A stretch of DNA of 64,000 nucleotides from Branchiostoma floridae (lineage: Eukaryota), in the NCBI RefSeq assembly GCF_015852565.1, contig NC_136205.1, forward strand, positions 3,002,707 to 3,066,706. The letters run 5' to 3'. Below are positions 1,940 through 42,342 of this stretch, piece after piece (the first letter of the stretch is position 1; every line of letters starts with the position of its first letter). Below the pieces are notes generated by a model. That model searched no databases and was not told the origin of the DNA. It saw only the letters and a list, made by a program, of their open reading frames with translations. Both the position numbers and the translations under genes were made by a program.

Positions 1940-2115
1940 TGCTGTGATGAGCAAATGTGTCCAGGAGAAGAAAAGACGGGAGCAGGAGAAGATGTACATC
2001 GAGGAGCTGGCTGAACTCATTTCCTCCAACATGGAGAACCTGATGACCATCAAGGCAGACAAGTGTGCCATCTTACAGGAGGCTGTAAAACAGATCAAGG
2101 CTCTACGGCACCAAG
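1940..2115 (+). CDS. NCOA: NCOA/SRC p160 coactivator homolog, bHLH exon (SKCVQEKKRREQE...ELAELISSN...DKCAILQEAVKQIKALRHQ)
   Basis: Acceptor ctgtccAG at 1938-39, donor GTAGGA at 2116. Translation matches the SRC-family bHLH (EKRRREQE.KYIEELAEL). It enters with phase 2 from an upstream exon outside the window. Confidence 0.85.
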
Positions 2116-2385
2116 GTAGGACCGTTTCTCTGACCGTCTTAATCATGAAAGTACAGATGAATTAGGTACAGACCAAGTCTCCACGGCGCCAAGGTACATG
2201 TAGGACTGTTTCTCTGACCGTCTTAATCATGGGAGTACAGATAAATTAGGTACAGGTCAAACAGTTCAAGAGTCCACGGCACCAAGGTAGGACCGTATCT
2301 CTGACCGTCTTAATCATGAGAGTATAGATAAATTAGGTACAGGTCAAACAGACCAAAGCTCTACGGCTCCAAGGTAGGGAGACCG
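2090..2385 (+). repeat. Tandem array (~85 bp unit, 4 copies). It duplicates the last ~25 nt of the bHLH exon plus the 5' splice donor (CTACGGCACCAAG|GTAGGACCGTTTCTCTGACCGTCTTAATCATG...).
   Basis: GT donors recur at 2116, 2194, 2287 and 2374 with near-identical flanks. Confidence 0.8.
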
Positions 2386-3284
2386 GATACTGTAGACATA
2401 TTTCTTTCTCTGCTAAGAGGAAGAGTATGGAAGCTAAACACACTACATTACCAGTGGACTAGCCTCCTGCTGTAGTGCTTGCACCTATGTGTGGCCCTAG
2501 GGCTATGAAACTGAGATGGGCACCGGGCGAAACACATCTCACTGATGGGACTTTAGCTTTGGGATTGTTTCTCTTGAGTTTAATCATGGGAGCCTTCATT
2601 TCAGACCAGGGATGTGTACCCGTATAGAAAATTCAGGTATAGGACAGACGGTCACCAAAATGTCTGTGAAAATAAAGTTGTGGTTGTGTAAAAAAAGCTC
2701 CTTGGTCAAATAGAGTAAGGCTGTACGGCAATACCCACTTGCAAACGGAAAAACATTTTGCTTGGAGCAGTAATACAAGAATGTAATGACTTGGAAGTAG
2801 GGCAACCTGAAATGCAGCACCTGGCTTTTAACTCAGGTTGTCACCTTAGCAAGCAAAAAAGGATTTTGAGCACCGCCTTCATTTCAGGCAGCGTAATTTT
2901 CTGATCGCTAACGGTTTGTAATCGCTGTCCAGATGAGTTAACATGATAGCGATTAGAAAATGCAATTGAGAAGAATAAGATGCAAGGCGGGGTCTTCAAC
3001 AAAGGCTATAATAATTAGAAAGGGTGGAGGCTTTTGCATACAATGTCAAGGACTGAATGTCTGAATGTCTCAAACAAAAGATGAAAGGCATGGATGGTAC
3101 ACTAAAGTTTTTATGGCAAACTGACACGTATAATTTTGTATGAGATCGCGTGACAGGCTGAATAGAAGTTCAAAACTTAACTATGCTGCTCCAGATGTCT
3201 AACTGAGGGATGACAGTCACTGTAGTGTGCAAGATGTTGGTAGCTTGATTAATGAATCCACTCTACTATATATTACGTGGCGTA

Positions 3285-3495
3285 ATCAGCAGCACGTTGG
3301 ACTCAAGCCCATGAGGTCCCGAGTTCGAAACCTACCGTGTCACCGATCTTGTGTCCTTAGGGAAGGCTCTTTACATGACTTTCCTCACTTCACTCAGGTA
3401 TAAATGAGTATCTAGCTCTGGCAAGGTCCAACCCTCGGATTGGACGCTAAGGTCCCTTATTCGAGGAGAGCCACACCCTGAACACGTAAAAGAAC
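3285..3495. mobile_element. tRNA-derived SINE copy (box-B-like GGTCCCGAGTTCGAAACC, then ...GGCTCTTTACATGACTTTCCTCACTTCACTCAGGTATAAATGAG)
   Basis: Shares its body with the copies at 28290-28480, 35265-35345, 39300-39400, 42895-43110 and 53690-53835. Confidence 0.65.
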
Positions 3496-3761
3496 CCGCC
3501 ACACTTATCGAAAAGAGTAGGGGAACTTCCCGGTGTGAGTTGATCAAACTATTCCGGCTAAATTGGGTAGGCTGGTAGGGAGTTTTCCCGAGCAGCCTTC
3601 GTAATCCCAGCTTCGCCTATTGGGTCAGTAAGTCGAAGCTCGATGTTTCTGACTTAGGAAGAAAAGATGCAGTGCTACATTGAGCGTAGTTCAGTGCCTA
3701 GAAGTGGTCAATGGCCTTGCACTGAGCAAACTCCTTAAAAAAGAATTGCTGCTGCATACAG

Positions 3762-4512
3762 TGCAGCAGCGCCACCCAGAGGTGAAGATTCATACTGCAG
3801 GATACTTGTATGTTGGAAGGGCCTTCACAGCAGTGACATCTAGAGGTGTACATGTGTACTGCAGGTTCTTGCTGCAACAACAACAACAAGAAGTTTATTT
3901 AGCAAAGTTGCCATAGGTGCAATCATGTATCTTACAGAATTCAAGCATTTTGATAGTGCTGCAGAGGTTGAATCCTTCCAGATTCAGAGTACAAGCCAAC
4001 CTGATAGGAAAAAAAACAGAAATGATATATAAAAGACATCCAAACTTAGTTTGATACACCATAAGAAGTTGAAATGTAGAAGTCAAAATGTATGGTTTCG
4101 AGTATGTATGTCTTTGAAATTTGAAAAATGACTTAGCAAATTTCAAAAGTGTTTTGTCCTGTTTCTTGCAGAGGAATCAGCAGCAAGGGAAGCAGTGCAG
4201 CAGTCTGATGTGTCGTCGAGCGGCCAGTCTCTCCTGCCTAGTAATGTGCTGGGGAATTTACTCTTAGAGGTAGGACAGTGTTTCTGGGTACAGCAGAGCC
4301 ATCTAGAGGTGAAGCTTCATACTGCAGGATATAGGAGCATAACAAGATATAGCAGTATTTTGATGATAATAACAAATTAACATTGCAGGCCAAGAGTTAA
4401 CCAAAATTAGATGCTGTTACAGTAGTAATCAGGGTTTCAGGCAGTACAGCAGTGCCCCTAGAGGTGAAACTTCATACTGAAGGAAATAGGACCATCATAA
4501 TAGGATATAGCA
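3762..4512 (+). repeat. Dispersed/tandem ~65 nt intronic repeat flanking NCOA exon 2 (CAGCAG.GCC.CTAGAGGTGAAGCTTCATACTGCAGGATA...)
   Basis: Copies at 3762-3815, 4285-4350 (immediately after the exon 2 donor) and 4440-4512. Confidence 0.7.
4172..4269 (+). CDS. NCOA: NCOA homolog exon 2 (ESAAREAVQQSDVSSSGQSLLPSNVLGNLLLE)
   Basis: AG at 4170-71 and GTAGGA at 4270. Homologous to the vertebrate SRC segment QKSDVSSTGQGVIDK...LLLEALDG. Phase fits exons 1 and 3. Confidence 0.8.
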
Positions 4513-5031
4513 GTTTAGCAGAATATAAATGATATAATTGTAGGCAAGAGTTTACCGAGATGTTATACTAAGGCCACACTGATAAGATTCAGACATTTAC
4601 CAAGTGGACAGTTGTGGATCACAGTGAGCCATCTGGGATGTGTATTGTTGGATGTGTATTGTTGGACGTGTATTGTTGGATGTGCATTGTTGGATGTGTA
4701 TAATGTTGGATGTGTATTGCAATGATTGCTGGAATGGTTACTGTCATCCCCAAGCCACCCCTCACCCCCATGTCATGCTCAAAGGAGAAAACACATTTCA
4801 ATGCAAGGTGCACCAGATGTTGGCAAAATTATAACAACAGCAATTCCAAAGTCCGTATCCGGTATTCGAATTATCGACAACGGTACACTTGGTGCATTTG
4901 AAGTGCATTCAAATTATTCAATGGATGTGATAACGGTAGAACGCCAAGTGATAACCCAAGTTACCACTAGGTCTGGAACACCTGTATTGAACATTATCAG
5001 GACATAACAATTGATTTTTTCCTGTTCACAG

Positions 5032-5209
5032 GCACTGAATGGGTTCCTGTTCGTAGTGAACAGCCAGGGAAAGCTGGAGTTCATCTCCAACAATGTGCAG
5101 AACTACCTGAGCTACACACACGATGAGCTGATGGGATCCAGCGTCTACAACATCATCCATGTGGGCGACCACACTCAGTTTGTCAACTGCCTCCTCCCTA
5201 TGTCTCTTG
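5032..5209 (+). CDS. NCOA: NCOA homolog PAS-A exon (ALNGFLFVVNSQGKLEFISNNVQNYLSYTHDELMGSSVYNIIHVGDHTQFVNCLLPMSLG)
   Basis: Acceptor ttcacAG and donor GTAAGG. Near-collinear with human SRC PAS-A (LDGFFFVVN...VYSILHVGDH.EFVKNLLPKS). Confidence 0.9.
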
Positions 5210-5671
5210 GTAAGGCTCAGTCTTATTTTTCATTTATTTTGCTCATCCAAAGCTCAGTTCAATAGTCGAAGCACAGGGGAAATGCAGGAGAAAAAAACCT
5301 TTGTAAGGGCCTTGAAAAGGCTTTATTAACCAACTTAAAAGTTTTATGCAAAACTTGTCAGAGTAATGCAATAATTTTTTTCTCCATTTTTTTCTAGCAC
5401 TAACTGTCTTGAAGAATGTACTTTATGTCAAATGCATGAAATATATAAGTCTATGTCTATAAGTCAGAGTTGTTTTAAACTTCAAACTTCCTAAATAATA
5501 CAAGAAAGTTTTTTCTAACACTCAAAGGATCTATCTTATACACATGTATCAATGCACTATTGCCTTCATGTAAGTAGCCCAATGTTTGTAACACAAATAT
5601 ATTAATAGCTAAGCGCAAAAATAAGGTGCACAGCTCCAATTTCAGGTGCACAGAAATGTGTTCATGCACCC

Positions 5672-5810
5672 AGATATTTTGAGCCCTACATTGGCATAGC
5701 AACAAGTTCAAACTCAGTCTGGTAATATTGTGTGCACTAAGTATTTTGAGCCCTACAAGAGGCATAGCCACAAATTCAAACTGTAATAATATTGTGTCTT
5801 CCCTTTAAAG
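5672..5810 (+). repeat. Tandem duplication (~68 nt x2) of the intron 3' end/acceptor region of NCOA exon 4
   Basis: ATATTTTGAGCCCTACA..GGCATAGC.ACAA.TTCAAACT....TAATATTGTGT occurs twice. The second copy ends in the authentic acceptor ccctttaaAG. Confidence 0.7.
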
Positions 5811-6005
5811 GCAATGGAGTGGGCTGGGCACCGGATGCCGCGGGAAAGAAGTGTCGTTCGTTCCAGTGTCGCATGATGGTGAAACTGGAAGCAGAGGAAG
5901 ACATGGAGAAACATCGCACGCAGACGCCCCAATACAAGACCATGCAATGCTCCGCTGTCTACCACCCCCACCCCACCAAGGGAAAGACTGAAGACGGCAA
6001 TGATG
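5811..6005 (+). CDS. NCOA: NCOA homolog exon 4 (GNGVGWAPDAAGKKCRSFQCRMMVKLEAEEDMEKHRTQTPQYKTMQCSAVYHPHPTKGKTEDGNDG)
   Basis: Acceptor ctttaaAG at 5809-10 and donor GTGAGT at 6006. In-phase ORF segment. Confidence 0.75.
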
Positions 6006-6287
6006 GTGAGTCTGAGGTGTTCTCACCTTCTGTTGGTGTTTTTACTTACTTAAACGAAAGAATGGTAAGTCTACTGGACCAGGTGCTCAAGGGACCAAAA
6101 CAATTTGGAGGGCAAATTGGAAAATGAAAATTTGAAATATTAGACTGGAAGTTCTTTCACAGCTGAACCTTCAAGGGAAAATGATTATTACAGAATTAAG
6201 AATTTATACACAAACAAGAAGACCTAGTCACAAGAGACCCTGTCACTTTCCTTTTGTATTACTGTTGTAATGACAGCATTAAAGTAT

Positions 6288-6330
6288 ACCAAGGGAAAGA
6301 CTGAAGATGGTAATGATGGTGAGGCTAACA
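6288..6330 (+). repeat. Echo copy of the NCOA exon 4 3' end plus donor (ACCAAGGGAAAGACTGAAGATGGTAATGATG|GTGAGG)
   Basis: Matches 5978-6012 (authentic ...GACGGCAATGATG|GTGAGT) about 300 nt downstream in the intron. Confidence 0.75.
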
Positions 6331-7051
6331 GATGGTTGTCTAAAGAGGGTTACAGGGCATCATACCACTATGCCTTAACTACACCACCCCTTTTTTATCT
6401 TGGGGAGCAAATCCTCAAACAAGCGTGAAATTCTAATTGACCAGGGGTGTTACTAGGTCACATGTGGCCACAGTTATTAACTATGACATGTCTCATAGTA
6501 ATGTTACCCCTCAGAAAGTCTTGGAAAAAAGCAATGCCCCATTTTTACTTCAAATTCTCTGAAACTCAACACCATGTCCCTTCACGCACCATTCCCTCGC
6601 TTGGCCGCTCCACCCCTGGCTCATGCTTAATTCTCCTTCTAGTCTTTTCCTGGAAATAACCCTAAGTGGTGTACTCTCCTGTTAAGCCCTTCAGGTCATA
6701 CCAAGATTTTCATAGGGATATGAACCTTTGTTTGAAAGGATCATGTTGTTATGGTTTCTTTTTTACAGTGAAAGACAGCCAGGTATTTAAGAGCTAGCAT
6801 ACAACCCAGCCTTAATTATACTCACTGACAGGGCTCCATCTGTTAGTAATTGTACCTGGTACTTTGTATGATTTTAATTTGTAAATAGTTTGCTGCTATT
6901 AGTTTATTTGTCCTATTACTTGATTATATTTAGCAGATCAGTATTACCAGGGCTAGCCATTTGTAATAAACTCTAAAAGATATTTTTGCAGTTTTGTTTG
7001 TTATGCTTTGGCCAAACTACATTTGTTGAGTCTACAATAATTCCTTTTCAG

Positions 7052-7285
7052 TCCCAGAAGCATGTCTCGTCTGCATTGCCAGTAAAGTGGCAGAGGCAAC
7101 TGACGTGGAGACAGTCATGCCGCTGGAACAGTTCTCCACGCGGCAGGACATCAATGGGAAAATCCTTGCCGTGGACACCAGCGGACTCAGCACGTCGGTC
7201 CCCCACGGGGAAATCGTGCGGCGCTGCCTCACTGAGCTCTACAAGGACTGCGAAGCTTGGGTCATGTCCAAACACCATAGAGAAG
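7052..7285 (+). CDS. NCOA: NCOA homolog PAS-B exon (PEACLVCIASKVAEATDVETVMPLEQFSTRQDINGKILAVDTSGLS...CLTELYKDCEAWVMSKHHRE)
   Basis: Acceptor ttttcAG at 7050-51 and donor GTGGGG at 7286. Resembles vertebrate SCLICIARR...TKQDTTGKIISIDTS. Confidence 0.8.
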
Positions 7286-8505
7286 GTGGGGACTTCTTTA
7301 TTTTGCTCCCAAACAGTTACTCAAGCAACTGGATATGATTTTGGAAACAGCCAGACATTTCAGACAGCCATCCACCGTATCTTATTACCTGGATGTCTAA
7401 CCTTCATCGACGTGCTTTTTATTTCCTCAGCTCAATAGAAATGTGATATTAGAAACAGATTTAACTATATCTATAGATCTGAAAGCTCCCATAATACTTA
7501 ACTAAAGATATGTAAATAAAGAAGAGATTGTTTTGTTATTAGAAAAGATAATGATATGCTTAGCCCCACCTGATAGTAGGAAGATCATGCTTCATAGATT
7601 CAAGTTTGTTATCCCAATTGTTATGTCTGACTCAGTAAAACTCTTAAATTTATCTTAAAACTCTAATTTGTACATTATAGTTCTGACCATACGAAAGTGA
7701 AATTGAACTTGTTGTTGTGTCAATACAGCTATGCTATACCCAAATGTGCCATCAGGTAATTTTTCAACGGCAATGCAGTAATTTTATGTGTGTGTTGGCT
7801 TCACTGCATGGATGAAGGAATATGTATCAGAAATCAAAGAAGGTGCATTTTTGTTTTTGCCTGAAATATTAACTGACTAATGTAGGTTAGACATCCGCCA
7901 ACAAAACTTTTAGCTCCTGTAACTAAAACAACAGGAGCTAATTGACTCATTTGCATTAACTGTGTCTTAGCCTTGATATCCTTTGAAATCCAAATTGTCT
8001 TCAGCTTGACTTTGGCTTAGCTTTGTTTTCTTTGGAATCCAAATTGTCTTCAGTCTGAATTGTCTTACAACCTTTCCTATTGGACATCTGAAATTGTCTT
8101 CATTCATAGTTAGAGTATAAAAGACCTGTTTCTTCCAGATCTCTTCAGTGTCACTGACGAAGGATAGTGGATTCTATCCGAAACGTCTGACCGTTTCAAA
8201 ACCATATCCAGTTGCTTGAGTAACTATTTTTGGCGTATTAACTGACTGACATATTGGATATTATCGTTTGCCAGGTAGACAGGTGGTGGCTTGCATGAGA
8301 AAGAAGTTCTTGTTTAGGAAGTAAAATGTGATACTATTTTCAAAAATCTAGATTTCATTTTTTCTGCAAAGAAAAGTTGGAAGTTAAAGTTAAAATTCTT
8401 GTCACATCCTTTGGTGCCCATCTCTGTGTTTAAAGTCCTTGGGCCACAGTTTTTTTTTAGGCAATCACTGTCACCTGCTTAATGTGCCCTCCTCTGTCTT
8501 TACAG

Positions 8506-8653
8506 TAATGGCATGTGGAACGGCCACAAGTCAGATTTACAAGTTTCAACTGCCAGGAGGCAACTGGGTCCACGCCCAGACGAAGAGCAAGTTGTTCCGG
8601 AACCCAGAGACGAAGGAGCCTCAGTACATCATGTCTATGTACTCTCTCATCAG
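8506..8653 (+). CDS. NCOA: NCOA homolog PAS-B exon (MACGTATSQIYKFQLPGGNWVHAQTKSKLFRNPETKEPQYIMSMYSLIR)
   Basis: Acceptor tttacAG and donor GTGATT. Matches vertebrate AHTKCKL...PQ.IMGIH. Confidence 0.85.
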
Positions 8654-9036
8654 GTGATTTTATTTTTCATTACTCAGAGAAAGGATTAGAACACTGCACT
8701 GGGAATTTTCTATTTGGTCAGCTACAGACTGACTTAAAAACGTTGAAGTACAAGATACAATCGATTGTGTTAAACCTACTTTCCTCTCTGCTGCACTGTA
8801 CAAAACTGTCACAGCTTGCCAAGAAGGTGTTGCATAATGACATTAATGAAAACTTTTTAAAAAAAAGGAAGTAAAACCCAACAAAATTTGGAGTCAACAT
8901 TGGGACTAGACTAGCCACATTTTATATTGTTCTTCATTGACTTTGTTTTTCCACTTACTAAAGTTGCCATGAACATTCAGACAAGAATTTGCAATGACTT
9001 ATTCATTAAATGCAAGAAATTGATATTTGTGTACAG

Positions 9037-9212
9037 AGACAGCAATGTTCCCAACGTGCCTGTACAAGGGACCATGACTGACTGCATCCTCCAGTCCATC
9101 CTCGGATCCTCCAGCTACATCCCGGGCCTGTCCTCCACATCCCAACCATCTGTTACCGTGGCAACCAACACCAGCAGTCAAACCATCACTAACCTGCTCA
9201 GTGCTATGTCGG
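9037..9212 (+). CDS. NCOA: NCOA homolog exon 7 (RDSNVPNVPVQGTMTDCILQSILGSS...SQTITNLLSAMSG)
   Basis: Acceptor gtgtacAG and donor GTACGT. Phase 2-in, phase 1-out, consistent with neighbours. Confidence 0.75.
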
Positions 9213-9699
9213 GTACGTTACAGTCAAGCAGTGTTCTAGCCAGCCCCAATTTTTTTCCATCCCCTGGATTTTGAATGGAAATCCTGGCAAAGGAAACCCT
9301 GACAATCCTAGGGGGTCTGGGGGCATGCTTCATCGGGAAAAATTCTAAAATCTAAACCCTCTGAAATGCTATTTCCTTTATTTTGAGGGGCAAATTTTGC
9401 TAGTAGAGTCAGCTTGTTACAGTTAACATCTTTACATGCTGATTTTTGTCCATCATAGAGGACGGAATAGGCAAAATTATCGTCCGGCCCCAGCAGTAAA
9501 ATTCTGTCATAGGACGGAATGACGGATGCTGGATAGAACCCTGCAGTCATGAGTTATAATTCTGTATCTACCAGCTTTTGTTGGCTGATTTATTTTTTTA
9601 TGGTTAATATTATGAAAAAATAATGATCTTTTTTCATGTTGACTCTCTTAGCAGGGGCAAAATGAAGCACAAGGGTTGATAATAAAAGAGTTTTGAATA

Positions 9700-9800
9700 G
9701 ATCAAAAATTTGATTGATGACTAGCATTTTTTATCAGATTTTTCTCCCAGGTAAGGCTATGAGTGAGGTTGTTGAAGCCGACCCAATCCAAACTCATGCT
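9700..9800 (+). repeat. Echo copy of the NCOA exon 8 acceptor plus first ~40 nt of the exon (tttttctcccAG|GTAAGGCTATGAGTGAGGTTGTTGAAGCCGAC...)
   Basis: Near-identical to 9935-10000. The copy runs into a stop after 17 codons. Confidence 0.8.
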
Positions 9801-9959
9801 TGATTGACTTTATCCTTGACTCAGCAGCATGGTACATGCAAATGGCTTTCCGATCTGTATCTTTTCCAAAAAAATTCTGTTAATTTTTTTAGTACACATA
9901 GGTGTTTCAAATAGATTAGATATTTGACTAGCATTTTTCTTAAACATTTTTTCTTCCAG

Positions 9960-10327
9960 GTAAGGCTATGAGTGAAGTTGTTGAGAGCGACAAGCCACCC
10001 CAACCTAATAAACTAATGCTCGAGATGCTCATGAAGTCACCCAAGTCTTCAGAGCAGTCCAAACCAATCTTGTCCTGCGCAGATGACATCGTTGTTGCCA
10101 CGGAAACAGTTGAACGGCCCAAACCTACTTGTACAGCATCCGTCGCGCCCTCGTCCCCACCTGTGTTAGAAAAGGAACCAGAGGAAATAGAAGAGGAGAA
10201 AAAGAATGAGGATGAGGAAGAATTGCCAAGGAGCGTTGAAGTGCCTACGTCAGGTCCGGAAAAGACAACGACAACAATGACAGAGAGCAGCCCCCCGAAG
10301 TCCAGCCCGGCCGGGAGCTCTCTCACG
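9960..10327 (+). CDS. NCOA: NCOA homolog exon 8 (S/T/E-rich linker: GKAMSEVVESDKPPQPNKLMLEMLMKSPK...EEIEEEKKNEDEEEL...SSLT)
   Basis: Acceptor tcttccAG at 9958-59; the donor at 10328 (GTGATG) is weak but phase-consistent with exon 9. Confidence 0.65.
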
Positions 10328-10937
10328 GTGATGATTTGGTTTTTATTGGAACATTCAAAACAACAGTCTAGCAGTTAACTAGATGTACATGTAGTTAACT
10401 GAATTGCACTGTTCACCAACGTAATACAATTAGCACTAAGTGACTGACAAATGTTTAAGACAAATACAGCAGCTATGAAATATAACATACAATGTATCTA
10501 CAATTCCTTCACTACTGTCATTATGATAGTGCTAAGTTGTTATTGTTTAAAAATGGTGCTTGACTGCTACATTACCAATAAGAATATCAACTTGTTATAA
10601 CATTTATCACTTCTATCATTATATATCAAATTTTCTTTTCCTTTAAAATGTGAATGTCTAATGATGGAATAGAAAATTATTGCTTTTTAGGTGAGTTTCG
10701 TATGTGCTTCCTATGAAGTAATGTTATCATAAAGATAGTGACACGTTTAGCCCTACCTGATTGTATGGACTCCGAGGTTTTCTTATTATCCTATATTGTT
10801 TAATTAGTAAAATTTAAATATCTATTCTGTATTCTTTCATCTTTTTTTCTTGTAGTTTATAGTGGACCATACAAAGTCAGTGGACTTTTTGTCGTGTCAA
10901 TAAATCTCTAAAATAGACAATTTGGCTTTTTCTATAG

Positions 10938-12882
10938 GTGTGGAGTAACCTCTTCAAGGGTCACCTGCCCCTGTCCAGCCAGCAGGAGATGGTGGTGGGA
11001 GTTCTTCACCAGCTCCACTCCCGCATGCGGAACGTGGACAAACTGAAACAACATCAGCAGGAATCCCTCTCCAAGAAGTCACACGACATCTCGCGGCACC
11101 CCCGCCTGCACAGACTGCTCACGCAGGAGCTCAGTAGACCGGGTTCGTACGCGGACTTGTCGATGTTTGAGAGCGAGACGGTGTCCAGCTCCTGTGGAGA
11201 CATCCCGAATGAGGTCTTCACGAGGGAAGATAGCATGGAGTCAGAGTCGAGCGACAGCCGAAGCGGGGACGCAACTCTTCTTCACAAGCTGCTTGAAACC
11301 AGACCGTCGATGCAAAGCCAGGACACGGAGATCCCGATAACGTCTCTGGCCAGCGGCACAACTACAACCACCACGGTCACGACGCAGTCCGTGTCGAGTA
11401 TCGCCAGCCCTGCGGCCACCATGCCCACTTGGAGTACAGCTCGGTCGGGACAACAAGTTGCTGTCGTACTACCCGAGCAGCGGCATCCGCAAATGGAATG
11501 GCAGACGGACAAAGAACACGGAAAGCCTAGTGGGGAGAAGGCAGGCCCGCATAAGCCTATGCTCATGGGAAAGAACTTGGTTAGCTTATCCGAGGAGCAG
11601 AAAATTTCCGCAGACAGCACGAGCTGCGACAGCATGTCAAGAAATGTACCGAAAATGGGGAAGGCCGAACACGCAATGGGCAAAAGGCCAGGACTGCAAC
11701 CAACACCACTGAACAGACAGAACAGTGACATGTCTGTAGCTTTGAGGCAGCCCAGCTGCTCAAGTGTTAGCCCAACAGGTTCAGTTTCGTCCGCAAAGGG
11801 AATAGAGCCAACAGTTCAGGGCCTAAATCAAGGCGCTACGACGACTCCAGTTGGTGACGAGGAATTGACAGATGCTGCATTAGAGACCCCATTGCTTAGA
11901 CAGCTGCTAAGTACGGACAAACGTGGCGAGAACGACGCCGGGATGACCCCCGAAGAGAGGGAACGACAACGGAAGGAAGTGCTTCTTGAGAAGATGCTGC
12001 AAGACGATGACTCGCCAAAGACCGGTGGCACCCCCCACGTTACTGGTCAGCAGGCTACCGTCAGGATGGCGGACAGCACAAGCACAAACGGAGACCTAGA
12101 GAAGAAAGAGAAACAGGAGCAAGTCAATAAGATCTTGCAGAACCTCCTTGCTGCTACCGGCAGTGCCCCGCTAGACACCATGCCAAGCAATGTAGCCGAT
12201 TGGGACGACGAAGCTCTTCTGGATCTGATCAAGCAAGAGGGAGACAGCCTGCTGAGCAATATACAAGGCGTTGGGGTTGGTGGGAAAGGCATGACGGACG
12301 TGACGTCTAGTCAGGACACCATGCAGTTCCACACGGCAGGCGGAAACGTTGGACACGTGTCGATCATGCCTTCGTCCTTCCCTCCGGCAGCTTTACCGAT
12401 CACTGCCACCGCGGGGACGAACTTGAACATCGGCATACTCGGCTCCAACGCTTCCCAAAGACTCAATTCTGATCCGTCAAGCCAAGTTTCAAAAGGCCTT
12501 GACAACGTGGGAGTTCCGCCGAGTTTGAGCGCTGGAAGCCTACAGAACAGCGAGCAAGTCATCGCTGAGTTAGAAAACCTTCTTGGTCTCCAAGGAAACA
12601 ACAGTCTTCTCGGGACGCAGCAAGGTCCAGGAGTGAGCCGTTTTAACCAAATGGGCAGTTCTGTCATGGGTTGGTCCGACCCCCCACAGGGTGGTGATCT
12701 CGTCGCCCAGCTAGAAAGTGTTCTAAAGAGCGACAGTTCCATTCTATGTGAAATTGACCAGCTGCTCGGGATTGCGCCCTCCGCCGGCGGTGTTCCGATG
12801 ACCCCAGGGGCGGAGGGTGGGGATTTCTCCATGCTAGATGGGGGACTGGATGGTTCGCAGTCCTTTCCTCCAATGGGGCCAG
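10938..12882 (+). CDS. NCOA: NCOA homolog large exon 9 (nuclear-receptor interaction domain with three LXXLL boxes: LLHKLLE, LLRQLLS, ILQNLLA)
   Basis: The 1945 nt open frame starts right after acceptor tctatAG. The donor is GTAATA at 12883. It is S/T-rich with three NR boxes, as in SRC-1/2/3. Confidence 0.85.
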
Positions 12883-13249
12883 GTAATAATAATAGTGTTT
12901 TATTGCAAATTCATGCCTATGAGGCTAAATCAAATGCTAATGTACTAACTATGAAATTAAAAGTGATTGTACATGCATGTATGTGGGCTAATAACAAGTG
13001 AATAATCTAAATTGTAACATGGCAGTTGAAAATGAAACATCTTATATTTTCTATGATATAGGTTGATGTGATGATCTCCGTAAGAAGAGCATTTTAAAGT
13101 TTGTGTTTTTCTAGCAATGAAAAGCATGGTGTGATTTCGGATGCTTTTCAAATAGTCATTTTCCTTCAGCATGGAATCTGGGACATTCACAAATGAAATG
13201 TGTTTCCACTGCTTTCTTGTGCACTGCTTACCAATTCTCCCATGAACAG

Positions 13250-13377
13250 GTAATGACATGGGGGTCGGCCAGTCGGTCGTTAGTCCAGGAATGGTTGGGC
13301 CGGACCATGATCCCAGCCAGGTCCCCTTGTCTCCAGTGCGAGGCATGCCACCCAAGCAAATGCCAAACATGGGCATG
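13250..13377 (+). CDS. NCOA: NCOA homolog exon 10 (GNDMGVGQSVVSPGMVGPDHDPSQVPLSPVRGMPPKQMPNMGM)
   Basis: Acceptor tgaacAG and donor GTGAGT. Phase consistent. Confidence 0.7.
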
Positions 13378-13944
13378 GTGAGTACATATACTGTTTGTTT
13401 ACAACTCAGTTGTTCTGTTTGGTTACAATACTTCCCTTGGGAAAGAAATACATTTTGTGAAATTTTCTCTTAGTAAATAGGTGTGGGTCAGTCGACTGAA
13501 CACACGTATGTCACATCTTCAGAAGGACACTGGAGCTGCACAATTTCTTTGAACAGATTTTATTCAATCCCGCACTCAATGGGCTGTCCCTTGATTGGCT
13601 AAACCACCATCGGCACTATGGCACCTCATATATGAGGTGCCATAGTGCCTGAAAGCCTGAATGCCTTGATCAAAATTCACCTGTCTGAATATGCTAATTT
13701 CAGCCCAGCCACCAAAGAGGTCACATCAACAAAACATGTTTAGATTAGTCTATGGGAACAATGCATCATGCAGCTCCAATATATATATCCTTAAGTAGTA
13801 CCTGTTTTCTTTGCATGTATTTATTAACAGAACAGCTTAAGAAGGTTTGATGTTGCCTTGGTCAAGGTTTGTGCTCTCCAAGCAAGTTTACCCTTACTTG
13901 TGATGCAACTTGATTTATGTCAAATGCCTCCTTACTTTGAACAG

Positions 13945-14064
13945 CAGCCCAACAGAAGTCTGCCGCAGGGACAGCCCAAGGTGCCCAACACAACCTCATT
14001 CCCTGCTGGTGCCAATCGACCCAGCATGCCGCAGCAGCAGGCAATGGCGATTGCCAGGAGCCAG
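13945..14064 (+). CDS. NCOA: NCOA homolog exon 11 (QPNRSLPQGQPKVPNTTSFPAGANRPSMPQQQAMAIARSQ)
   Basis: Acceptor tttgaacAG (NAGNAG context) and donor GTAATG. Phase 0/0. Confidence 0.65.
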
Positions 14065-14359
14065 GTAATGGCAAGAGAAAAGACAGTCACAGTTTGCCAC
14101 TTTAACAAGAGTCTGCACATACTTTTAAAATGTCATAATATCACATATTGGATTCTGTTCTTCAAGAAATTCCTTAAGTAGTCTGCCAAATCTTAGGTCA
14201 CTCAGCAGTTGCAACTTCCAGTAGAAAGGTGGACCAGGTGTAAATGTCACAGATGGCCATTGTGAGTCTCTGCTAACTGCCTGGCCTGGATCTTTTTCGG
14301 CATATATCTTGGTCTTAAACTAATACTACTGGTTAAGTGTTAACATTCTCTTTTTGCAG

Positions 14360-14587
14360 AGCAACAGCCGTCCCATGATGCCGCACACGCAGCAGCAGCT
14401 GTACAACATGCTGCAGAGGCGGCAGTCCCAGCTGCTGCTGCAACAGAGGCAGCTGCAGGCCCGGCTGGCTGCAGCCGGCGGGAACTACCGCCTCTCCAAC
14501 CTTAGCAACGAACAGCGGCTGCAGCTACAGAGGATCCAACTACAGAGGAGACAGGCCCAGGCACTGGCAGCACAGGCTCAGGCACAG
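14360..14587 (+). CDS. NCOA: NCOA homolog exon 12, Q/L-rich (QQLYNMLQRRQSQLLLQQRQLQARLAAAG...QAQALAAQAQAQ), CBP/p300-interaction-like region
   Basis: Acceptor ttttgcAG and donor GTCTGT at 14588. Glutamine-rich like the vertebrate SRC AD1/Q-rich region. Confidence 0.75.
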
Positions 14588-14749
14588 GTCTGTAGATACA
14601 TGTACAATGTAGAAAGTGGAAGTGCAAATGAAAATGAAAATGGGATGCAACAAATTTGGACAGAAAATTACACTGTCAGATAAACAGAAGAAAAATAGAT
14701 TGGCAAAAGAGAAACAGTGCAACCATTTTATCAGAGGATCCTGCTACAT

Positions 14750-14930
14750 GTACAAATGAGACAGGCCCAGGCCCTAGCATTACAGGCACAGGTCTGTAGA
14801 AAGAAAACTATCCCTCACAAAGCTCTGTCTTACAGTAGACACATAATATAAATGGTTCAGACTGAGGATCCAGTTACAGAGGTGACAGGCCCAGGCCCTA
14901 GCAGTACAGGCTCAGGCACAGGTCTGTAGA
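14750..14930 (+). repeat. Two echo copies of the NCOA exon 12 3' end plus donor (GACAGGCCCAGGC.CTAGCA.TACAGGC(TCAGGC)ACAG|GTCTGTAGA)
   Basis: Copies at 14757-14800 and 14880-14930, versus the authentic 14540-14597. Confidence 0.8.
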
Positions 14931-15352
14931 ATTAAGAAAAAAAAAATTAAATTGGCACAGCTTTAATAAGGACTTCTGTTACTCATTCACTCACTATCCA
15001 TTGTTAAAGAGTCGATTTAGTTCAATTGAAAATGGAATTTAGCAAATTCAGACAGGTTTGACATCAGAAAAATACACCGTCAGGAGATAGATTGGCAAAT
15101 GATTCTGGCTAATATACACTTAGGATACTGGCATTTTCTTTTACATTTTGATGCCTATCAGACATCTCCCTAAGACATTCTGGCTAGAGTGCTGCTTCTT
15201 GCCACTATTCCATGGTAGTTAGCAGTTTCATCAAAGAGAGAGTGTGTTGCATATCTGTCAAGTAAATTTTCTGTTTTCATTTGCATCATATGTTTGACAG
15301 AGATTGGCTTTGCTAGTAGTCCTTTTCTGACGATTCTCTCTTGACTTTGCAG

Positions 15353-15773
15353 GGAATGGGGTCCAATCCGTCAGCAGCTCCACACATGGCTGGCCGTCCC
15401 AACAACCCTCTAAACTTCCCCAGCGGTGGTGGTGGGGTAAACTTTCCCCAGGGGGGTGGGGCTGGCATGAACATGGCCCAGCCTGGCAACACCATCGGTG
15501 TCCAACAGGGAGGTGTTAATCTTCCCCAGGGTGTTGGTATGACCCGCCCTCCAGGCGCAAATACTGGCATGAACTTTCCCCAGGGCGTAAATAGCAGCTT
15601 GAGCCATCCCCAGAGTGGTAATGGTGGTATGAACCACCCCCAGGGTGTAAACACAGGCATTCCCCACACCCAGGGAGTCAACAGTGGCATGAGCCGCCCC
15701 CAGAGTGGCCAGAGCAACATGAGCTCCCAAGGCTCGGTCTTCCCATCACAACAGGGTGGCAACATCAACCAAG
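15353..15773 (+). CDS. NCOA: NCOA homolog exon 13, G/N/P/Q low-complexity repeats (G(M/V)N(F/H)PQGVN x about 7)
   Basis: Acceptor ctttgcAG and donor GTGAGA. The long ORF 15341-15787 has imperfect 9-10 aa repeats. Confidence 0.7.
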
Positions 15774-16238
15774 GTGAGATCTTTTGATAGATGGAATTAA
15801 AGTTTTTATATAATGTAGTAATTGTGTCTAAGTTTTAGGAGCAATATGTTGGAAGCACTTACTATGTTGCTTTTTATTTTACAGAAAGCTTTTTGCTTCT
15901 TTCGACAATACACTACAAAGTGTTGTCTACTGAGATTTGAATGTGGTTTTAGAGAACTGATACTTATAACTTTTAAACTAATGGCAAAATTAAGGTCAAA
16001 ATTGAAAGGGCTTGGCAGATGTACACTGATTTGAGTAATGATGAAGAAGAAAAAGATGTCTATATCCATTATTGTCATGATAGATAAATAGTTTTGTTGC
16101 CTTTTTAATGTTACCTATAAGTCCGTAAAAATACTAAAACTCTAGAAAACTTTGATTAAAATCGCATAGTTTGAAAATGACATCTGATATTCTTGAATAT
16201 GACATAACTTAATGATTCTACGATTCTCTTCTCTACAG

Positions 16239-16714
16239 GTTTTCAAGCCAGACCAGGCATGTCGGGGCAGCCCCCCCAGCTGCGCGCCCGTATGGTACGG
16301 CCCGCCAACCTGTCCATCAACCAGCAGATGATGGGGTCCAACATCAGGGGTCAGAATGCAGGCATGATGTCACCCAGCGCCATGACCTCACTCGTCAGCA
16401 TGACCCCTGGCCCCATCGTTTCGCCCAATCAGGTGGCTCCGCCGAACCAGATCTCGCCGTCGGCTCAGTTGATGACGTCCAAGACGATGTCAATGCAGGC
16501 AACCAATCAAATGCCGGGAATGGGTCCACCGCTAATGTCGCCCAATCAGATGACAGCTCCAAGGTCAAGGACACCGTCCAGCCCAGGGATGACATCACCC
16601 ATCTTGATGACATCACCGAACCAGATGGTGCCGCCCAATCAGATGGCAGGAAATCCTGTGACATCACAGGGCGGAATGGTCTCTCCTTTGACACCTCGGA
16701 TGCCTTATGGACAG
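16239..16714 (+). CDS. NCOA: NCOA homolog exon 14, (M/V)(S/P)PNQ(M/I/V) repeat region
   Basis: Acceptor ctctacAG and donor GTGCTC. The ORF has six or more SPNQM-like repeats. Confidence 0.7.
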
Positions 16715-17107
16715 GTGCTCTTACTGGTTTTCATTTAGCAACTTTCAATTTAAATCATCTATGATTCAATGCAGAAAACAGCCTATGAAGGTTTTCTTCC
16801 AGAAATAACAAGGCATTAGAGGTGGTGAACAACCCCTAATCTGATTAAATTTGGCTTTATATGTTGGCCTACCCAACATTCTGATGCAGATCATTTAAAT
16901 TAGTGATGAAAATAAGATTTTCAGATATGACACCGTTGTTCCAATGAAACCAACATGCATGTACCCACGTATTTGATGCTTATTAAGACATCTTTCTATT
17001 GTAAACCTTAAATGTTATAGAACACCCTTAAGATGATGTAGAGGTTACACAAGATAAAACTCAGTTTACAGCAGAATGAAAAATGTATTTTCTTTCTCGT
17101 CAAACAG

Positions 17108-17171
17108 ATGGGCCCTACAGGAAGTTCCATGATGCCACAGCGTCCTTCCAACATGCACAGCATCCAGCAAG
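17108..17171 (+). CDS. NCOA: NCOA homolog exon 15 (MGPTGSSMMPQRPSNMHSIQQ)
   Basis: A 64 nt exon between acceptor caaacAG and donor GTGAGA. Phase 0-in and 1-out, which is required by its neighbours. Confidence 0.6.
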
Positions 17172-17573
17172 GTGAGACATTCCTAACAAGTTAGATTGAC
17201 AGCATTGAAATTACAGTAGCGGCATCTTAGTATATGCAAATAGCTTTATGGCAAGAATGTGCAATAATCTTATTGTTATTATGGCCAATTGAGCAAAACT
17301 ATGATGTATTTTGGTTAAACTGTTAATTTTGATTTCAATCCAAAATGATTTCAATTACAAAAATTATTTTGGTCAGGTCTAGGAGTCTTGCTAATTTATT
17401 GTTTAACCATTATTTTCCAATATGATGATTTGAAAGGATTCTTCACATTGAAGAACACACATTGTAAAAAAGAATATCCCTCATTCTTGCTAACTAGGCA
17501 TGTACAATGCATTAAGGTCTCTATGTAATTAAAAAAAGTTCACAATATGTTTTGTCTTTACCATGTTAAACAG

Positions 17574-17779
17574 GTGGGTTTTCAGGACCACATCAAGCCC
17601 AGATGGCTGTACCAGTGTCCCAGAACTCCTTACCGAGGATGCAGCAGCGTTCTCCTATGGGGCAGCCACGGCTGGGCCAGTCTGCAATACATGGTATGGC
17701 ACAACTGTCACCGAGACGGGCACAGGCACCGCAGGGGATGGGCCACTCTGTGCAAGACAGGAACCAGGACTTTTCAATG
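17574..17779 (+). CDS. NCOA: NCOA homolog exon 16 (GGFSGPHQAQMAVPVSQNSLPRMQQRSPMGQPRLGQSAIHGMAQLSPRRAQAPQGMGHSVQDRNQDFSM)
   Basis: Acceptor gttaaacAG and donor GTACGG. Phase consistent. Confidence 0.7.
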
Positions 17780-18357
17780 GTACGGACAGAGCAAGATAGA
17801 TTGACTGGATTTTGAGAATCTTAACACAACCATTTTAACACCCGTGACAGTTTTGTAGCAGTGTTTTGAAAGTAACTGTCCTTGTTTTTAGGTTAGATCC
17901 AGTAAGATTAGCTACTAAGAAATTCAATATTGAAATAGTATTTATTATATATGTTTGTTAGTGGACTGAATAAAGTATCAATTTTACATATAGACAATTG
18001 TCAAAGATAGGCTTTGATCAGTCACAAATTTATCATTGTTAATAATATTTACGATTATCATGACTGAGCCATTTTATTTTTACATGTCACTTTAAAAGTT
18101 TAGAATTGATTGTAACTTCAATAATCGTTAAGTTCAGCAAGTGAGTTAATCTCATTTCTTTTATTATATGATAATTCCAGAACATGCTTTTTCTTTGTTG
18201 TTTGGATTTTCTATTCCTATGAAATGTCTTGTGAAATGAAGATGTTTTAAGTCTGAAAATGGATTCCTCACATATACATGTATTCAACTTGCTTCTGTCA
18301 ACAGACAGGTTGTGCAATATTTCAGCAAATGACTTAATCTTGTCTCTTCTATTCCAG

Positions 18358-18571
18358 AACAACCAAATGAATCAGGGGAATGCAGGAGGAATGGCACAGT
18401 CGCCCTTCAACCAGCTCTTGTCCCCGACATCCTCCGGTCCTAATCAGCTCTTGTCCCCAGTGTCCTCTGGTCCAGGTCAGCTCTTGTCCCCAGTGTCCTC
18501 AGTAGCCCCCAGACCCAACTTCATGCCATCTGCTGCTACGTCGAGCAGCAGTCAGATGCAGTCATATGCTG
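18358..18571 (+). CDS. NCOA: NCOA homolog exon 17 (NNQMNQGNAGGMAQSPFNQLLSPTSSGPNQLLSPVSSGPGQLLSPVSS...SQMQSYAG), 3x QLLSP(V/T)SSGP repeat
   Basis: Acceptor ctattccAG and donor GTAAGT. Internal 30-nt tandem repeats. Confidence 0.7.
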
Positions 18572-18999
18572 GTAAGTCATGACTTGTATCTGAATTGTTG
18601 TCCGTTGTTATGACTTATAATGTAAAGACAACCTTAAGTTGGTGTGCTACCTTGATTATAACTTGAAACCTCACACCTTTTTGTGTATAGGACTGTGCCA
18701 ATCTTTGTTTCTATAGCTCACAGAGCCACAAGAAGGCTAGTGTTCTTGATAGAGTAACACAAATTAATACAGTCAAACCTGTCTATGGCAACCAATCATA
18801 GAACTTGAAAAGAAAATGGTCACTGCAGACAGGTGGCTGCTATATATAGGAATCTTAATTGTAGTAACTGTAGAAAAATTATCTGATTTAAAGGACCATC
18901 AAAAATAAGTCTCAAAGGCCAGGCAGTCCCTTTACAGACTCAAGACAGCCCCTAATGCAAGTTGTAGATGATGAACATTTTTTTTTCTCCACCATGCAG

Positions 19000-19178
19000 T
19001 TGCCAGAGCGGGAATGTCCCTTCCGACAAGCGCGGGAATGATCAGTCCCCACGGGGGCCCACCCAAGAGTCAGTTTGGGGCCGACGCCCTCATCAGGGAC
19101 TCGAGCGGCCCTCTCGGGCCAGCCTCTGATTCAGGTAGCTCTCTTGGTGAATCAGGATGCTCACAAAGTGACTTGAAG
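19000..19178 (+). CDS. NCOA: NCOA homolog exon 18 (VARAGMSLPTSAGMISPHGGPPKSQFGADALIRDSSGPLGPASDSGSSLGESGCSQSDLK)
   Basis: Acceptor ccatgcAG and donor GTATGC. Phase consistent. Confidence 0.65.
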
Positions 19179-19559
19179 GTATGCATGTGGTGATCTGGAC
19201 CATGATTCGCTAATCTCTCCCTCTCCGTATGCACCCTTTTGATGATGACACTGTCAGTTGATTTGATTCAAGTTTGGGTTGGGGACTTGATTTTGTGGTA
19301 GGAGGCACGCACTTGTGTTGTTTGAGTCCATTGAGCCCACTATTGAAGAAAAGGTGAACATAGGCCCACTTTACATGTTGAATTTTGCGATATTGGACTG
19401 TGTCAGGTTTTTCCTGTGATGGAAGTGAGTCAATAATGATGTTCCTATCATCAAAAGGGTGCATTCCAGCCAACAGTCAGTGGTAGCTGTGATCTGCATG
19501 CGCATTTTTGTCCCAGACATCCTACTGCTGCTATATGTCTACATGTATGAGGGACTTGT

Positions 19560-26464: not shown

Positions 26465-26900
26465 TAGCCTCACTAGGGCTGGGTACTGGTACAGAAAATT
26501 CAGGTCCAGGTCCGGTTCAGGTCCAAAGGATCAGGTCCAGGTCCGGACCTGAACTTGGACCTGATGCAGTATGACTCATACCAATGGTCCATATCACTAC
26601 AAAGAAATCTGTTTGGTGGAGTATTAGACTTACACTGGCGTTTTAAAATCCTACAACGCTAACTGCACCTGTACAATTGGCTGTAAAACTTGGTAGAAAT
26701 TACTATAAACTCTACACTACTTCGCTCTTGTTATTTTCTTCCACCTGCAAGTGCCAAAACGTGTGAATGCCTGATAAAATAATCTGTTAATTTTCTAATC
26801 GGTCCAACATCCGGTCAACCTAATTTTTTCAGGTCCGGTTTTTCTGGACCGGTCCAATAAGAAAAACCGGTTTTGTACCGGTAAGCCCTAAGCCTCACCG
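26465..26900 (+). mobile_element. MITE (~435 bp) with TIR CTAGGGCTGGGTAC.GGTAC and an internal palindrome GGTCCAGGTCCGGTTCAGGTCC...GGACCTGAACTTGGACC. This is copy 1 of 3.
   Basis: Near-identical copies at 31067-31500 (inverted) and 33637-34075. Confidence 0.8.
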
Positions 26901-31066: not shown

Positions 31067-31500
31067 GCTATTAGGGCTGGGTATCGGTACAGCGTACCGG
31101 TACAAAACCGGTTTTTCTTATTGGACCGGTCCAGAAAAACCTTACCTGAAAAAATTAGGTGGACCGGATGTTGGACCGATTAGAAAATTAACAGATTATT
31201 TTATCAGGCATTCACACGTTTTGGCGCTTGCAGGTGGAAGAAAATAACAAGAGTGAAGTAGAATGGAGTTTATAGTAATTTCTACCAAGTTTTACAGTCA
31301 ATCGTACAGATGCAGTTAGCGTTGTAGGGTTTTAAAACGCCAGTGTAAGTCTAATACTCCACCAAACAGATGTCTTTGTAGTGAAATGGACCATTGGCAT
31401 GAGTCATACTGAATCAGGTCCGGGTTCAGGTCCGAACCTGGACCTGATCCTTTGGACCTGAACCGGACCTGGACCTGAATTTTCTGTACCGGTACCCACC
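31067..31500 (-). mobile_element. MITE copy 2 (inverted orientation), flanked by a (GTTT)n microsatellite at 31570-31600
   Basis: Reverse complement of 26465-26900 and 33637-34075. Confidence 0.8.
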
Positions 31501-32559
31501 CCTAGTGGCTATAGTCATTTTAAGAATGTAGATTCTGAAGTAATTTTTCACCTAGTTCAAGGCGTAGGTATTGTTTTCGTTCTTTTGTTTGTTTGTTTGT
31601 TTGTTTGAAGTGATATGTGTTGAACATTGTTTCTGCTGGCCCGGCTCCAAGTTTGTTCCCGGGATGAGTTGTAACCAGAGACTAACAGGATGCGAAGACT
31701 GATCTGGCCTACTTCAGAATGTCTTAAGAAGGCAGGAAGTGAACACATGGCCAAAAGTTGGGAACCCGAGGAGGGCATGTACCCGAGAGTGTAGAATGAA
31801 ATGTGTAAATTAAACGAGGTTGTGCAATATTTTTCAAGAAATTAACAAAATCTTTCTGCTATTCATTTGTGTGTGATGTGTACAAAAAAAGTGGAATAGA
31901 GGGTGATCACCCGAAAGTAAGTCGTTGTAATCAGATCTGTGTTCTTAACGTGTGGCTACTGTCATTTGAACACTTTAGGCATGATTTGTTGATTTGCGGA
32001 GTGGTGTACAGGGTCCTTCATTTTCTGGTACTCTCTTTACCTCAATGGCTTTCATGACTCATCGATGGACCCTCAGACGGGGTCTTGTTTATGTGTTGCC
32101 ATAGCAACGGCGCCATAAGGGAGCCAGGCATAAGAGTGCTTCCTGTCACCCTAAGAAATTATAATACTGATTAATGTATATATTTTCCTGCTTTTTTGGT
32201 ACTTCCTTATAATCATCGCTCTTTGCGGCAACATGAATGATTTCCAAAACCATATCCAGTTGCTTGTCAATGAGTAACTACTATTTGTCGTAAAAGCTAT
32301 AGATGCCCAACGTTCATCGACGTATGAAAAAATTCTCTTTTCTCCACTAGCTGGAAACAAGACTCATCTTTTGATAAGTCTAGAAGTATTTTTAAATGAA
32401 GACCTATGGTCAAGTATATATATGACTCCAGTTTATTGTATGTATTTTTTAATATGTGAATATTAGGGAAAGCTATATTTCTTGCCGGTTTACAAAAGAC
32501 TTATAATAGATTACGAAGATTTCCTCCTGACCCTTATAGAAAGTCTTTGGTCGTTGACA

Positions 32560-33050: not shown

Positions 33051-33636
33051 TTGTAAATATTATATACCATGTGTAAAATAGATTAGTCTCTTAGATTTTT
33101 AGATACTAGTAATTCATGTAGTGTTCTGTTCTGTATGTATTGTATGTACAAGTTGCCAAACACTGTATCCTCTACAGTTGTGCAATAAAGTTCTTCTTCT
33201 TCTTCTGTTCATTGTACGACCGTAGTACAATCACAATCTCGGGTCATTGTTATGATAGTCTTGCAGACATATGTCATATAGCAAACTTCAGCTGTCTTGT
33301 TAAGGACTCTGTCTTGTCTTCCTTGTCGGCGGTTGATTTTGTCACTGCTTGAAAAATTCCATTATAGCAAAATTGTAAAACGGCTATAGCTAATGACGAA
33401 TTTGACCGCGAATAGAGTCTTGACCCTTAGTTTTGATCTCTCCCTCCTCAGACCCTGCCCTGACCGTTGTGAACCAGAGCCCGCTGATGAAAATATTATA
33501 CGGCATAATTATGTACTATTGTGTGTAAGTAGCTTGATAAAAGGCTACGAGGAAAATATTTTGTATTTTTGTGAAAATATTGCCTTTCTAGTATTGGCTT
33601 TTTTTAGAAATAGATACCTGACCATTAGTCTTAACT

Positions 33637-34075
33637 AGGGGTGGGTACACCGGTACAGAAAATTCAGGTCCAGGTCCGGTTCAGGTCCAGATGATCAGGT
33701 CCAGGTCCGGACCTGAACCTGGACCTGATTCAGTATGACTCATACCAATGGTCCATTTCACTACAAAGAAATCTGTTTGGTGGAGTATTAGACTTACACT
33801 CAGCGTTTTCAAACCCTACAACGCTACCTGCACCTGTACGATTGGCTTTAAAACTTGGTAGAAATTACTATAAATTCTACTCTACTTCACCCTTGTTATT
33901 TTCTTCCACCTGCAAGCGCCAAAACGTGTGAATGCCTGTTAAAATAATCTGTTAATGTTCTAATCGGTCCAACATCCGGTCCACCTAATTTTTTCAGGTC
34001 CGGTTTTTCTGGACCGGTCCAATAAGAAAAATCGGTTTTGTACCGGTACGCTGTACCGATACCCAGCCCTAGTCT
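33637..34075 (+). mobile_element. MITE copy 3, followed by a (CAAA)n microsatellite at 34196-34250, immediately upstream of EGF-kringle gene exon 2
   Basis: Same family. The MITE plus spacer plus microsatellite unit is an inverted duplicate of 31067-31600. Confidence 0.8.
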
Positions 34076-42340: not shown

Positions 42341-42342
42341 AG

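Follow-up and report, generated by a model that had tools for sequence, protein, structure and literature searches.

Tandem repeats that span exon/intron boundaries have been described in several amphioxus genes, namely Adh3, TnC, the globin genes BflGb6 and BflGb9, and PGBD5 (PMC3087553, PMC3902484). These 'mirages' are built of units of 10-160 bp, affect both 5' and 3' boundaries and are accompanied by normal splicing (PMC3087553, PMC3902484). The original description in Adh3 (Canestro et al. 2002), as cited in PMC3087553, reported units of 10-72 bp and somatic instability. Units of the BflGb6 mirage are 81-100% identical (PMC3087553), and the lancelet PGBD5 gene carries imperfect tandem repeats of 60 and 108 bp that extend over 5' and 3' splice sites, with Adh and TnC named as further examples (PMC3902484). 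Lancelet genomes are extremely indel-rich, small indels accounting for ~9% of genome length (PMC4284660). Among human genes, the minisatellites of F7, IFI6 (6-16), CBS, LMNB2 and PDGF begin with a monomer that spans an exon/intron boundary; the pseudo-donors of F7 are functional yet silent, the most upstream site being selected in a 5'-to-3' direction (PMC1557585).

The 64-kb window considered here (the whole stretch of amphioxus DNA that was analysed; all coordinates are window positions, and a slash marks a splice junction) contains an arrangement of this type in a predicted NCOA (p160 nuclear-receptor coactivator) gene. A segment of ~70 nt, comprising the end of exon 12 and its donor, is present there in three direct copies with start-to-start spacings of 204 and 130 nt.

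14360-14587, + strand: NCOA exon 12, a Q/A-rich exon of 228 nt with phase 0 on either side; its end reads ...GCTCAGGCACAG
14527-14596, + strand: copy A, the authentic exon end, with 61 nt of exon and the first 9 intron bases, GTCTGTAGA; donor GT at 14588-14589
14605-14710, + strand: intron segment 3' of copy A, co-duplicated, aligning to 14999-15102 (blastn, E=5e-5)
14731-14800, + strand: copy B (echo), 64-73% identical to A; pseudo-donor GT at 14792-14793
14861-14930, + strand: copy C (echo), sharing 90% identity with A and interrupted in frame by a TGA; pseudo-donor GT, 14922-14923
14999-15102, + strand: counterpart intron segment 3' of copy C, from which an insertion of ~68 nt (14931-14998) separates it
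15353-15773, + strand: NCOA exon 13, whose acceptor pairs with the donor of exon 12 (GT-AG chain, ORF model)

A codon-score profile proved too noisy for exon finding and was replaced by a frame-consistent GT-AG chain through candidate exons, validated by uninterrupted ORFs. The resulting NCOA model has 17 exons (1947 to 19193) and a single ORF of 1,813 aa with a terminal stop only; exon 12 is translated as SNSRPMM...AQAQAQ, with the junction AQAQAQ/gtctgtaga. Pfam detected bHLH_NCOA (52.8 bits, cut-off 27) and PAS_11 (93.1 bits, cut-off 25) in this model, which also has the LXXLL-type motifs LHRLL, LHKLL and LRQLL and Q-rich exons. A protein search returned homologs named NCOA2/3, and the putative product has the N-terminal bHLH-PAS region of the NCOA type. 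All matches listed by the protein search are at most 525 aa long, full-length NCOAs and close orthologs of the window genes being absent among them, and the 687-aa large exon gave no match in the homology search. The second gene, of the EGF/kringle type, was modeled with 14 exons (34273-43529) and one ORF of 624 aa. The window is from a cephalochordate genome, very likely Branchiostoma: an NHL exon yielded 54 protein matches, almost all from Branchiostoma (41-48% identity), and a locus of B. lanceolatum has 22 repeat matches in common with the window, the longest being 392 nt at 83%.

Self-comparison of the window by blastn recovered all pairs of exon-12 copies, A and C with 90% identity over 70 nt (E=5.8e-16), B and C with 80% over 66 nt (E=2e-7), and A and B with 73% over 75 columns (E=3e-5). 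Together with the MAFFT alignment, this confirmed the three copies proposed in an earlier note on this DNA, with respect to their coordinates, their spacing (given there as ~200 and ~130 nt) and the retention of the donor. All three copies contain an identical 25-nt block, formed by CAGGCACAG/GTCTGTAGA plus flanks. In the multiple alignment CAGGCACAGGTCTGTAGA is invariant, and the splice signal CACAG/GTCTGTAGA is the same in A, B and C, with the GT reiterated in the intron. Copy B has one 6-nt insertion and one 6-nt deletion (GCTCAG). Two states distinguish both B and C from A, namely GCCCTAGCA in place of GCACTGGCA and GTAGAA in place of GTAGAT. Each copy includes 61 nt of exon and at least 9 nt of intron, and the intron part of a longer original unit reaches at least 14710: alignment of 14605-14710 with 14999-15102 gave 77 matches, 17 mismatches and 22 gap columns, that is, 82% identity at aligned bases, versus 90% for the exon-derived part of A and C. 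The segment following copy B (14801-14860) has no detectable counterpart after copy C in the alignment. Identity is perfect in all three copies over the final 18-25 nt, donor included, and the rest of B is ~65-75% identical; such a perfect end could hint at selection or gene conversion, in a tiny sample in which the alignments anchor on the best-conserved block.

The most plausible explanation, to which we assign a probability of about 0.8, is that the copies represent a degenerate mirage produced by local duplication straddling the exon-12/intron-12 boundary of the amphioxus NCOA gene. Initially, a segment measuring no less than 184 nt and probably ~334 nt, which ran from 14527 into the intron as far as 14710 or beyond, would have been duplicated downstream, placing a second exon end and donor inside intron 12. 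This intronic copy would then have changed from GCACTGGCA to GCCCTAGCA and from GTAGAT to GTAGAA before being partly re-duplicated into B and C; finally, B and C would have decayed by substitutions and indels, while protein-level selection kept A unchanged. This history would thus require two or more local duplication events, and we infer their order from the derived states that B and C share and A lacks, which point to a single intronic ancestor that arose from A and split into B and C. A divergence d of the exon-derived part versus ~2d of the intron part is expected when one exon-derived copy is frozen by protein selection. Since no counterpart of 14801-14860 follows C, the second step was probably not a clean tandem duplication; in agreement with this, the copies are imperfect and not strictly head-to-tail. 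TRF called no array at the exon-12 period, the conserved cores being separated by unrelated sequence and sharing 64-90% identity. This low identity and the interrupted cores are consistent with an old, decayed array. The echo copies are most likely neutral, a probably harmless relic; by analogy with published mirages, polymorphism of the array in copy number or length is assumed. A 24-mer spanning the donor, CAGGCTCAGGCACAGGTCTGTAGA, had 0 matches in a metagenome scan.

By structure, the exon-12 copies are an old and degenerate instance of the amphioxus mirages. They have in common with this class the probable genus, the boundary-spanning unit, the GT/AG reiterated in the intron, the occurrence at both boundary types within one genome and a unit size of tens to ~160 bp, and their imperfection resembles that of the PGBD5 mirage (PMC3902484). 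In contrast to published mirages, the exon-12 array consists of three copies of 64-90% identity at spacings of 204 and 130 nt and is not a homogeneous head-to-tail minisatellite. The published mirages have, moreover, been shown to vary in length, to be somatically unstable and to permit normal splicing. The 37-bp VNTR in intron 7 of F7 offers a parallel with a tested silencing mechanism, as it likewise places identical intronic pseudo-donors behind an authentic donor (PMC1557585). However, the units in F7 are perfect repeats that adjoin one another, are polymorphic and include four exon bases each, whereas the exon-12 units include ~60 exon bases, are diverged and stand apart, and the acceptor-side echoes of the window fall outside the F7 model. 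Tandem exon duplication involves the same local-duplication process and size class, but affects whole exons with both splice sites, which can be included by splicing; of exon 12, the copies have the 3' end only and no matching acceptor. According to the Rogers model (Hellsten et al. 2011), introns are reportedly gained when an exon segment containing AGGT is duplicated in tandem. The likeness is that, within a gene, a small tandem genomic duplication includes splice-site sequence. In the Rogers model, the duplication takes place within an exon, the new intron lies between the copies and the mRNA is unchanged, whereas the exon-12 segment already held a junction and intron sequence, and its extra copies lie in a pre-existing intron. 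Taken alone, the exon-12 locus is of little importance, extending to one NCOA gene a phenomenon on record since 2002.

Additional repeats at exon junctions were detected in the NCOA and EGF/kringle genes.

2082-2386, + strand: donor of the bHLH exon (exon 1, 2115/2116), then three more units of ~85 nt, each ...CCAAG/GTA (blastn, 40-mer scan)
4270-4561, + strand: ~152-nt tandem duplication whose start is base 1 of intron 2, so that it abuts the exon-2 donor (z=20.6)
5967-6337, + strand: exon-4 donor (6005/6006), with a ~43-nt echo standing alone 313 nt downstream (blastn, 40-mer scan)
9723-9999, + strand: exon-8 acceptor (9959/9960) and an echo ~209 nt upstream (blastn, 40-mer scan)
18129-18362, + strand: exon-16 acceptor, with a weak echo (29/40) 188 nt upstream of it (40-mer scan)
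33441-34330, + strand: acceptor of the first mapped exon of the EGF/kringle gene (34272/34273) and two upstream echoes (blastn, 40-mer scan)
42049-42388, + strand: acceptor of an EGF exon (42342/42343) and two upstream echo units with a period of 142-148 (blastn, 40-mer scan)

The array at the bHLH exon is a clean head-to-tail example of a mirage, and the architecture seen at exon 12 recurs at 6-7 other junctions of the window, at donors as well as acceptors and with unit lengths of 85-330 nt. The interior of exon 2, considered as a source of the repeat family flanking this exon, was rejected (z = 0.8-1.7). Two isolated 'patch' copies of 43-44 nt with 89-92% identity and unrelated flanks were also observed. 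One of them (6288-6330) is the exon-4 donor echo; the other (3761-3804 vs 4288-4331) is intron-2 sequence copied into intron 1, across exon 2. These patches look like templated-insertion or filler-DNA events and not like tandem duplications.

To quantify the echoes, every 40-mer was scanned for its best ungapped same-strand match 40-1000 nt away, and the 59 mapped junctions were considered. At six of them (the NCOA donors of exons 1, 4 and 12, the exon-8 acceptor, and the EGF-gene acceptors 34272 and 42342), a 40-mer straddling the junction matched at 33/40 or better within 1 kb; a seventh, the acceptor at 18357, reached 29/40, and the rest did not exceed 26. This unbiased scan thus reproduced the claim of at least seven junction echoes, which are found at 7/59 junctions, or 8 if the abutting repeat is counted. 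As a possible mechanism, the earlier note proposed small tandem duplications tolerated only when they overlap an exon edge and spare the authentic junction. The duplications are indeed local (tandem or near-tandem) and the authentic junction is intact at 7-8 junctions, but the restriction to exon edges was not supported: intron-only and intergenic duplications of the same size class exist, and such repeats make up 2.4-9% of the bases across four amphioxus regions. Duplications away from junctions were found at 7965-8069, 31033/31921, 46.6-47.0 kb, 51.0-51.4 kb, 60.34-60.44 kb and 62.8-63.4 kb. In the literature searched, we found no earlier quantification comparable to these 7-8 affected junctions in two neighbouring genes, and the window gives a first rough echo density of ~1 junction in 8.

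Whether the excess at junctions is real depends on the null model applied. Junction 40-mers match at 10-12% versus 3-5% for intronic 40-mers; at a threshold of 33 and with echo partner copies included, the comparison of junctions with intronic positions gave 10.2% vs 3.1% (P=0.0098). Under a null based on geometry only, with duplications of the observed sizes placed randomly in the two genes, the junction share of tolerated events is expected to be 28-33%, since the genes are so compact that a duplication of 50-330 nt often straddles an exon edge; the probability of 7 or more of 9 is then 0.003-0.008. When the approximately twofold detectability of exon-anchored pairs is added, which follows from the fact that only one member of such a pair evolves, the expected share rises to 44-50% and P to 0.04-0.09. 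With the abutting event counted, a post hoc inclusion, P(>=8/9) is 0.002 without the twofold factor and 0.033 with it. Local repeats occupy 4.9% of the bases of the window and 2.4%, 6.1% and 9.0% in three other amphioxus loci, which served to set the background repeat density and in which the NHL-family genes are intronless or have 1-3 introns. Compared with the 11.9% of junctions that have echoes, this base-level null gave P=0.0005-0.27 without the twofold factor and 0.02-0.92 with it. The comparison of junction with intronic 40-mers, suggested in the earlier note as a check, therefore had a borderline outcome, as the excess is mostly gone after correction for compactness and detectability. 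A junction-specific duplication process is not established, P varying from 0.0005 to 0.9 with the null model, and the excess over background is at most ~2-3-fold, on small counts. A high uniform duplication background fits the indel-rich lancelet genome (PMC4284660). Genome-wide claims about mirages would likewise be confounded by the compactness of genes and by the longer time over which exon-anchored copies can be recognized.

The same data bear on the possibility that junctions are true duplication hot spots, or that duplications at junctions are favoured by selection, the exon-12 array being one product. Such a bias could be caused by splicing- or transcription-coupled break or repair, by microhomology of the splice consensus, or by an advantage of decoy U1/U2AF sites. 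Apart from the seven junctions with echoes, it is suggested by an eighth duplication beginning exactly at the first intron base, by the gap between the share of 28-37% predicted from geometry and the 7/9 or 8/9 observed (P=0.002-0.008), and by the fact that several papers on amphioxus independently noticed such repeats and term the mechanism unclear (PMC3087553, PMC3902484). The GT is kept in 6/6 donor echoes and the AG in 5/5 acceptor echoes, a retention that is biased because a match across the junction was required. We nevertheless consider hot spots unlikely. The detectability factor lifts P to 0.03-0.09, the junction rate becomes unremarkable (P 0.02-0.92) when the factor is combined with the 2.4-9% of amphioxus bases in local repeats, intron-only duplications arose in the introns of both NHL paralogs, and the counts are small, the eighth event having been added post hoc. 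If true, hot spots would explain why 12-14% of the window junctions have echoes and why mirages were noticed gene by gene, and the exon-12 array and the patches at 6288 and 3761 would be footprints of a junction process and not of a uniform background.

A role of the echoes in splicing has a much lower probability. From -6 to +9 (15 nt), the donors at 14588, 14792 and 14922 do not differ, so that intron 12, as in F7, contains an authentic donor followed by sequence-identical pseudo-donors. The exon-12 donor itself has a PWM score of 1.7, among the weakest in the gene, where real donors range from -0.1 to 6.7. Copy B includes an open unit of 57 nt (14735-14791) in phase with exons 12 and 13, a possible pseudo-exon; it could act as a cassette exon that would add RILLHVQMRQAQALALQAQ to the Q/A-rich region, or the echoes could provide regulated alternative or poison 5' sites. 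A candidate acceptor, TTTTATCAG, is located upstream of this unit, its donor is the same as the authentic one, and the globin authors modeled mirage units turning into new exons (PMC3087553); if this happens, copy B is the kind of intermediate predicted. However, the candidate acceptor of B is weak (score 1.0, in the lower range of real acceptors), and C has the in-frame TGA and, for in-frame exons of 12-33 nt, poor purine-rich acceptors scoring at most 1.6. The echo units of the bHLH exon, of 22 and 31 nt, are not multiples of three, the divergence of the copies fits neutral decay, and published mirages leave the mRNAs unaltered (PMC3087553, PMC3902484). An alternative 5' splice site extending the ORF was rejected: read-through past the authentic donor meets a stop after 31 codons, and the distance of 334 nt from A to C is not a multiple of three. 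The pseudo-donors are presumably silent, since the spliceosome would take the most upstream donor, which adjoins the defined exon. Use of a downstream donor would retain intron sequence with a stop, and the transcript would be expected to be degraded. As the three donors are identical and weak, the advantage of the first must have its cause elsewhere than in the donor sequence. In this respect the locus is a natural experiment of modest value in splice-site choice, with three weak donors identical over 15 nt and placed 204 and 130 nt apart.

Even less probable, to the point of being negligible, is that the copies were made or carried by a mobile element, as in MITE transduplication, or that they arose as an artefact of assembly, for example by tandem stacking of haplotypes. 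It is true that MITEs are abundant in the window, one of them lying between the EGF-gene echoes, and that one mirage was mis-assembled in a draft genome according to the globin paper (PMC3087553). At exon 12, however, the flanks of A, B and C do not recur in the window, and neither terminal inverted repeats nor target-site duplications are seen; because the flanking intron sequence has no further copies elsewhere in the 64-kb window, a transposon is not the source. The copies differ by 10-35% with indels, far above what duplication of haplotypes or read errors would leave. The MITE at 33636-34071 (436 bp, terminal inverted repeats TAGGG(G/C)TGGGTA, 8-bp target-site duplication GTCTTAAC) looks hAT-like. 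Two other copies are located in the window, at 31072-31504 (- strand) and 26474-26883, and the 94% identity of the three suggests a recently active family. Since it has its own target-site duplication and interrupts an echo, this element was inserted later into a pre-existing echo. The earlier suggestion of MITE-associated duplication is thus rejected at exon 12, where no multi-copy element flanks the copies, and the 33.6-kb MITE postdates the echo; local duplication across the exon-12 boundary remains the preferred explanation.

Several other features of the two genes were observed. The exon-8 acceptor of NCOA and its upstream echo (9945-9970 and 9740-9765) read TTTTTTCTTCCAG/GTAAGG and TTTTTCTCCCAG/GTAAGG, a strong acceptor abutting a consensus donor; this juxtaposition, present at both positions, characterizes recursive (ratchet) splice sites. 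A similar recursive-type motif is found at the acceptor of exon 10, CAG/GTAATG (13240-13260). At the exon-11 acceptor (13942-13947) there is a CAGCAG tandem (NAGNAG), with both AGs in frame and one Gln codon apart. Intron 10 includes a perfect palindrome of 38 nt (13612-13649; 19+19 nt, no spacer). Exon 13 contains, at 15431-15708, a coding repeat with a 30-nt period, ~4.6-9 units and 62-85% identity that encodes decapeptides of the G-x-N-x-P-Q-G-V-N type. In the EGF/kringle gene, a (CAAA)n microsatellite at 34203-34250 lies directly upstream of the polypyrimidine tract of the acceptor at 34272.

Finally, the window contains two NHL-repeat paralogs in head-to-head inverted orientation, at 45363-49933 (- strand) and 58112-62730 (+ strand), with exons 88-92% and introns 80-87% identical. 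An intron of each paralog has its own lineage-specific tandem duplication (46.6-47.0 kb and 60.34-60.44 kb). In an NHL-family gene of B. belcheri (GCA_001625305.1, L003:10196-10819), three tandem exons of ~102 nt with their splice sites are found 250-275 nt apart, the first copy being only 87.5% identical to the annotated protein. This tandem duplication of a whole exon is a sibling outcome of the local-duplication process.
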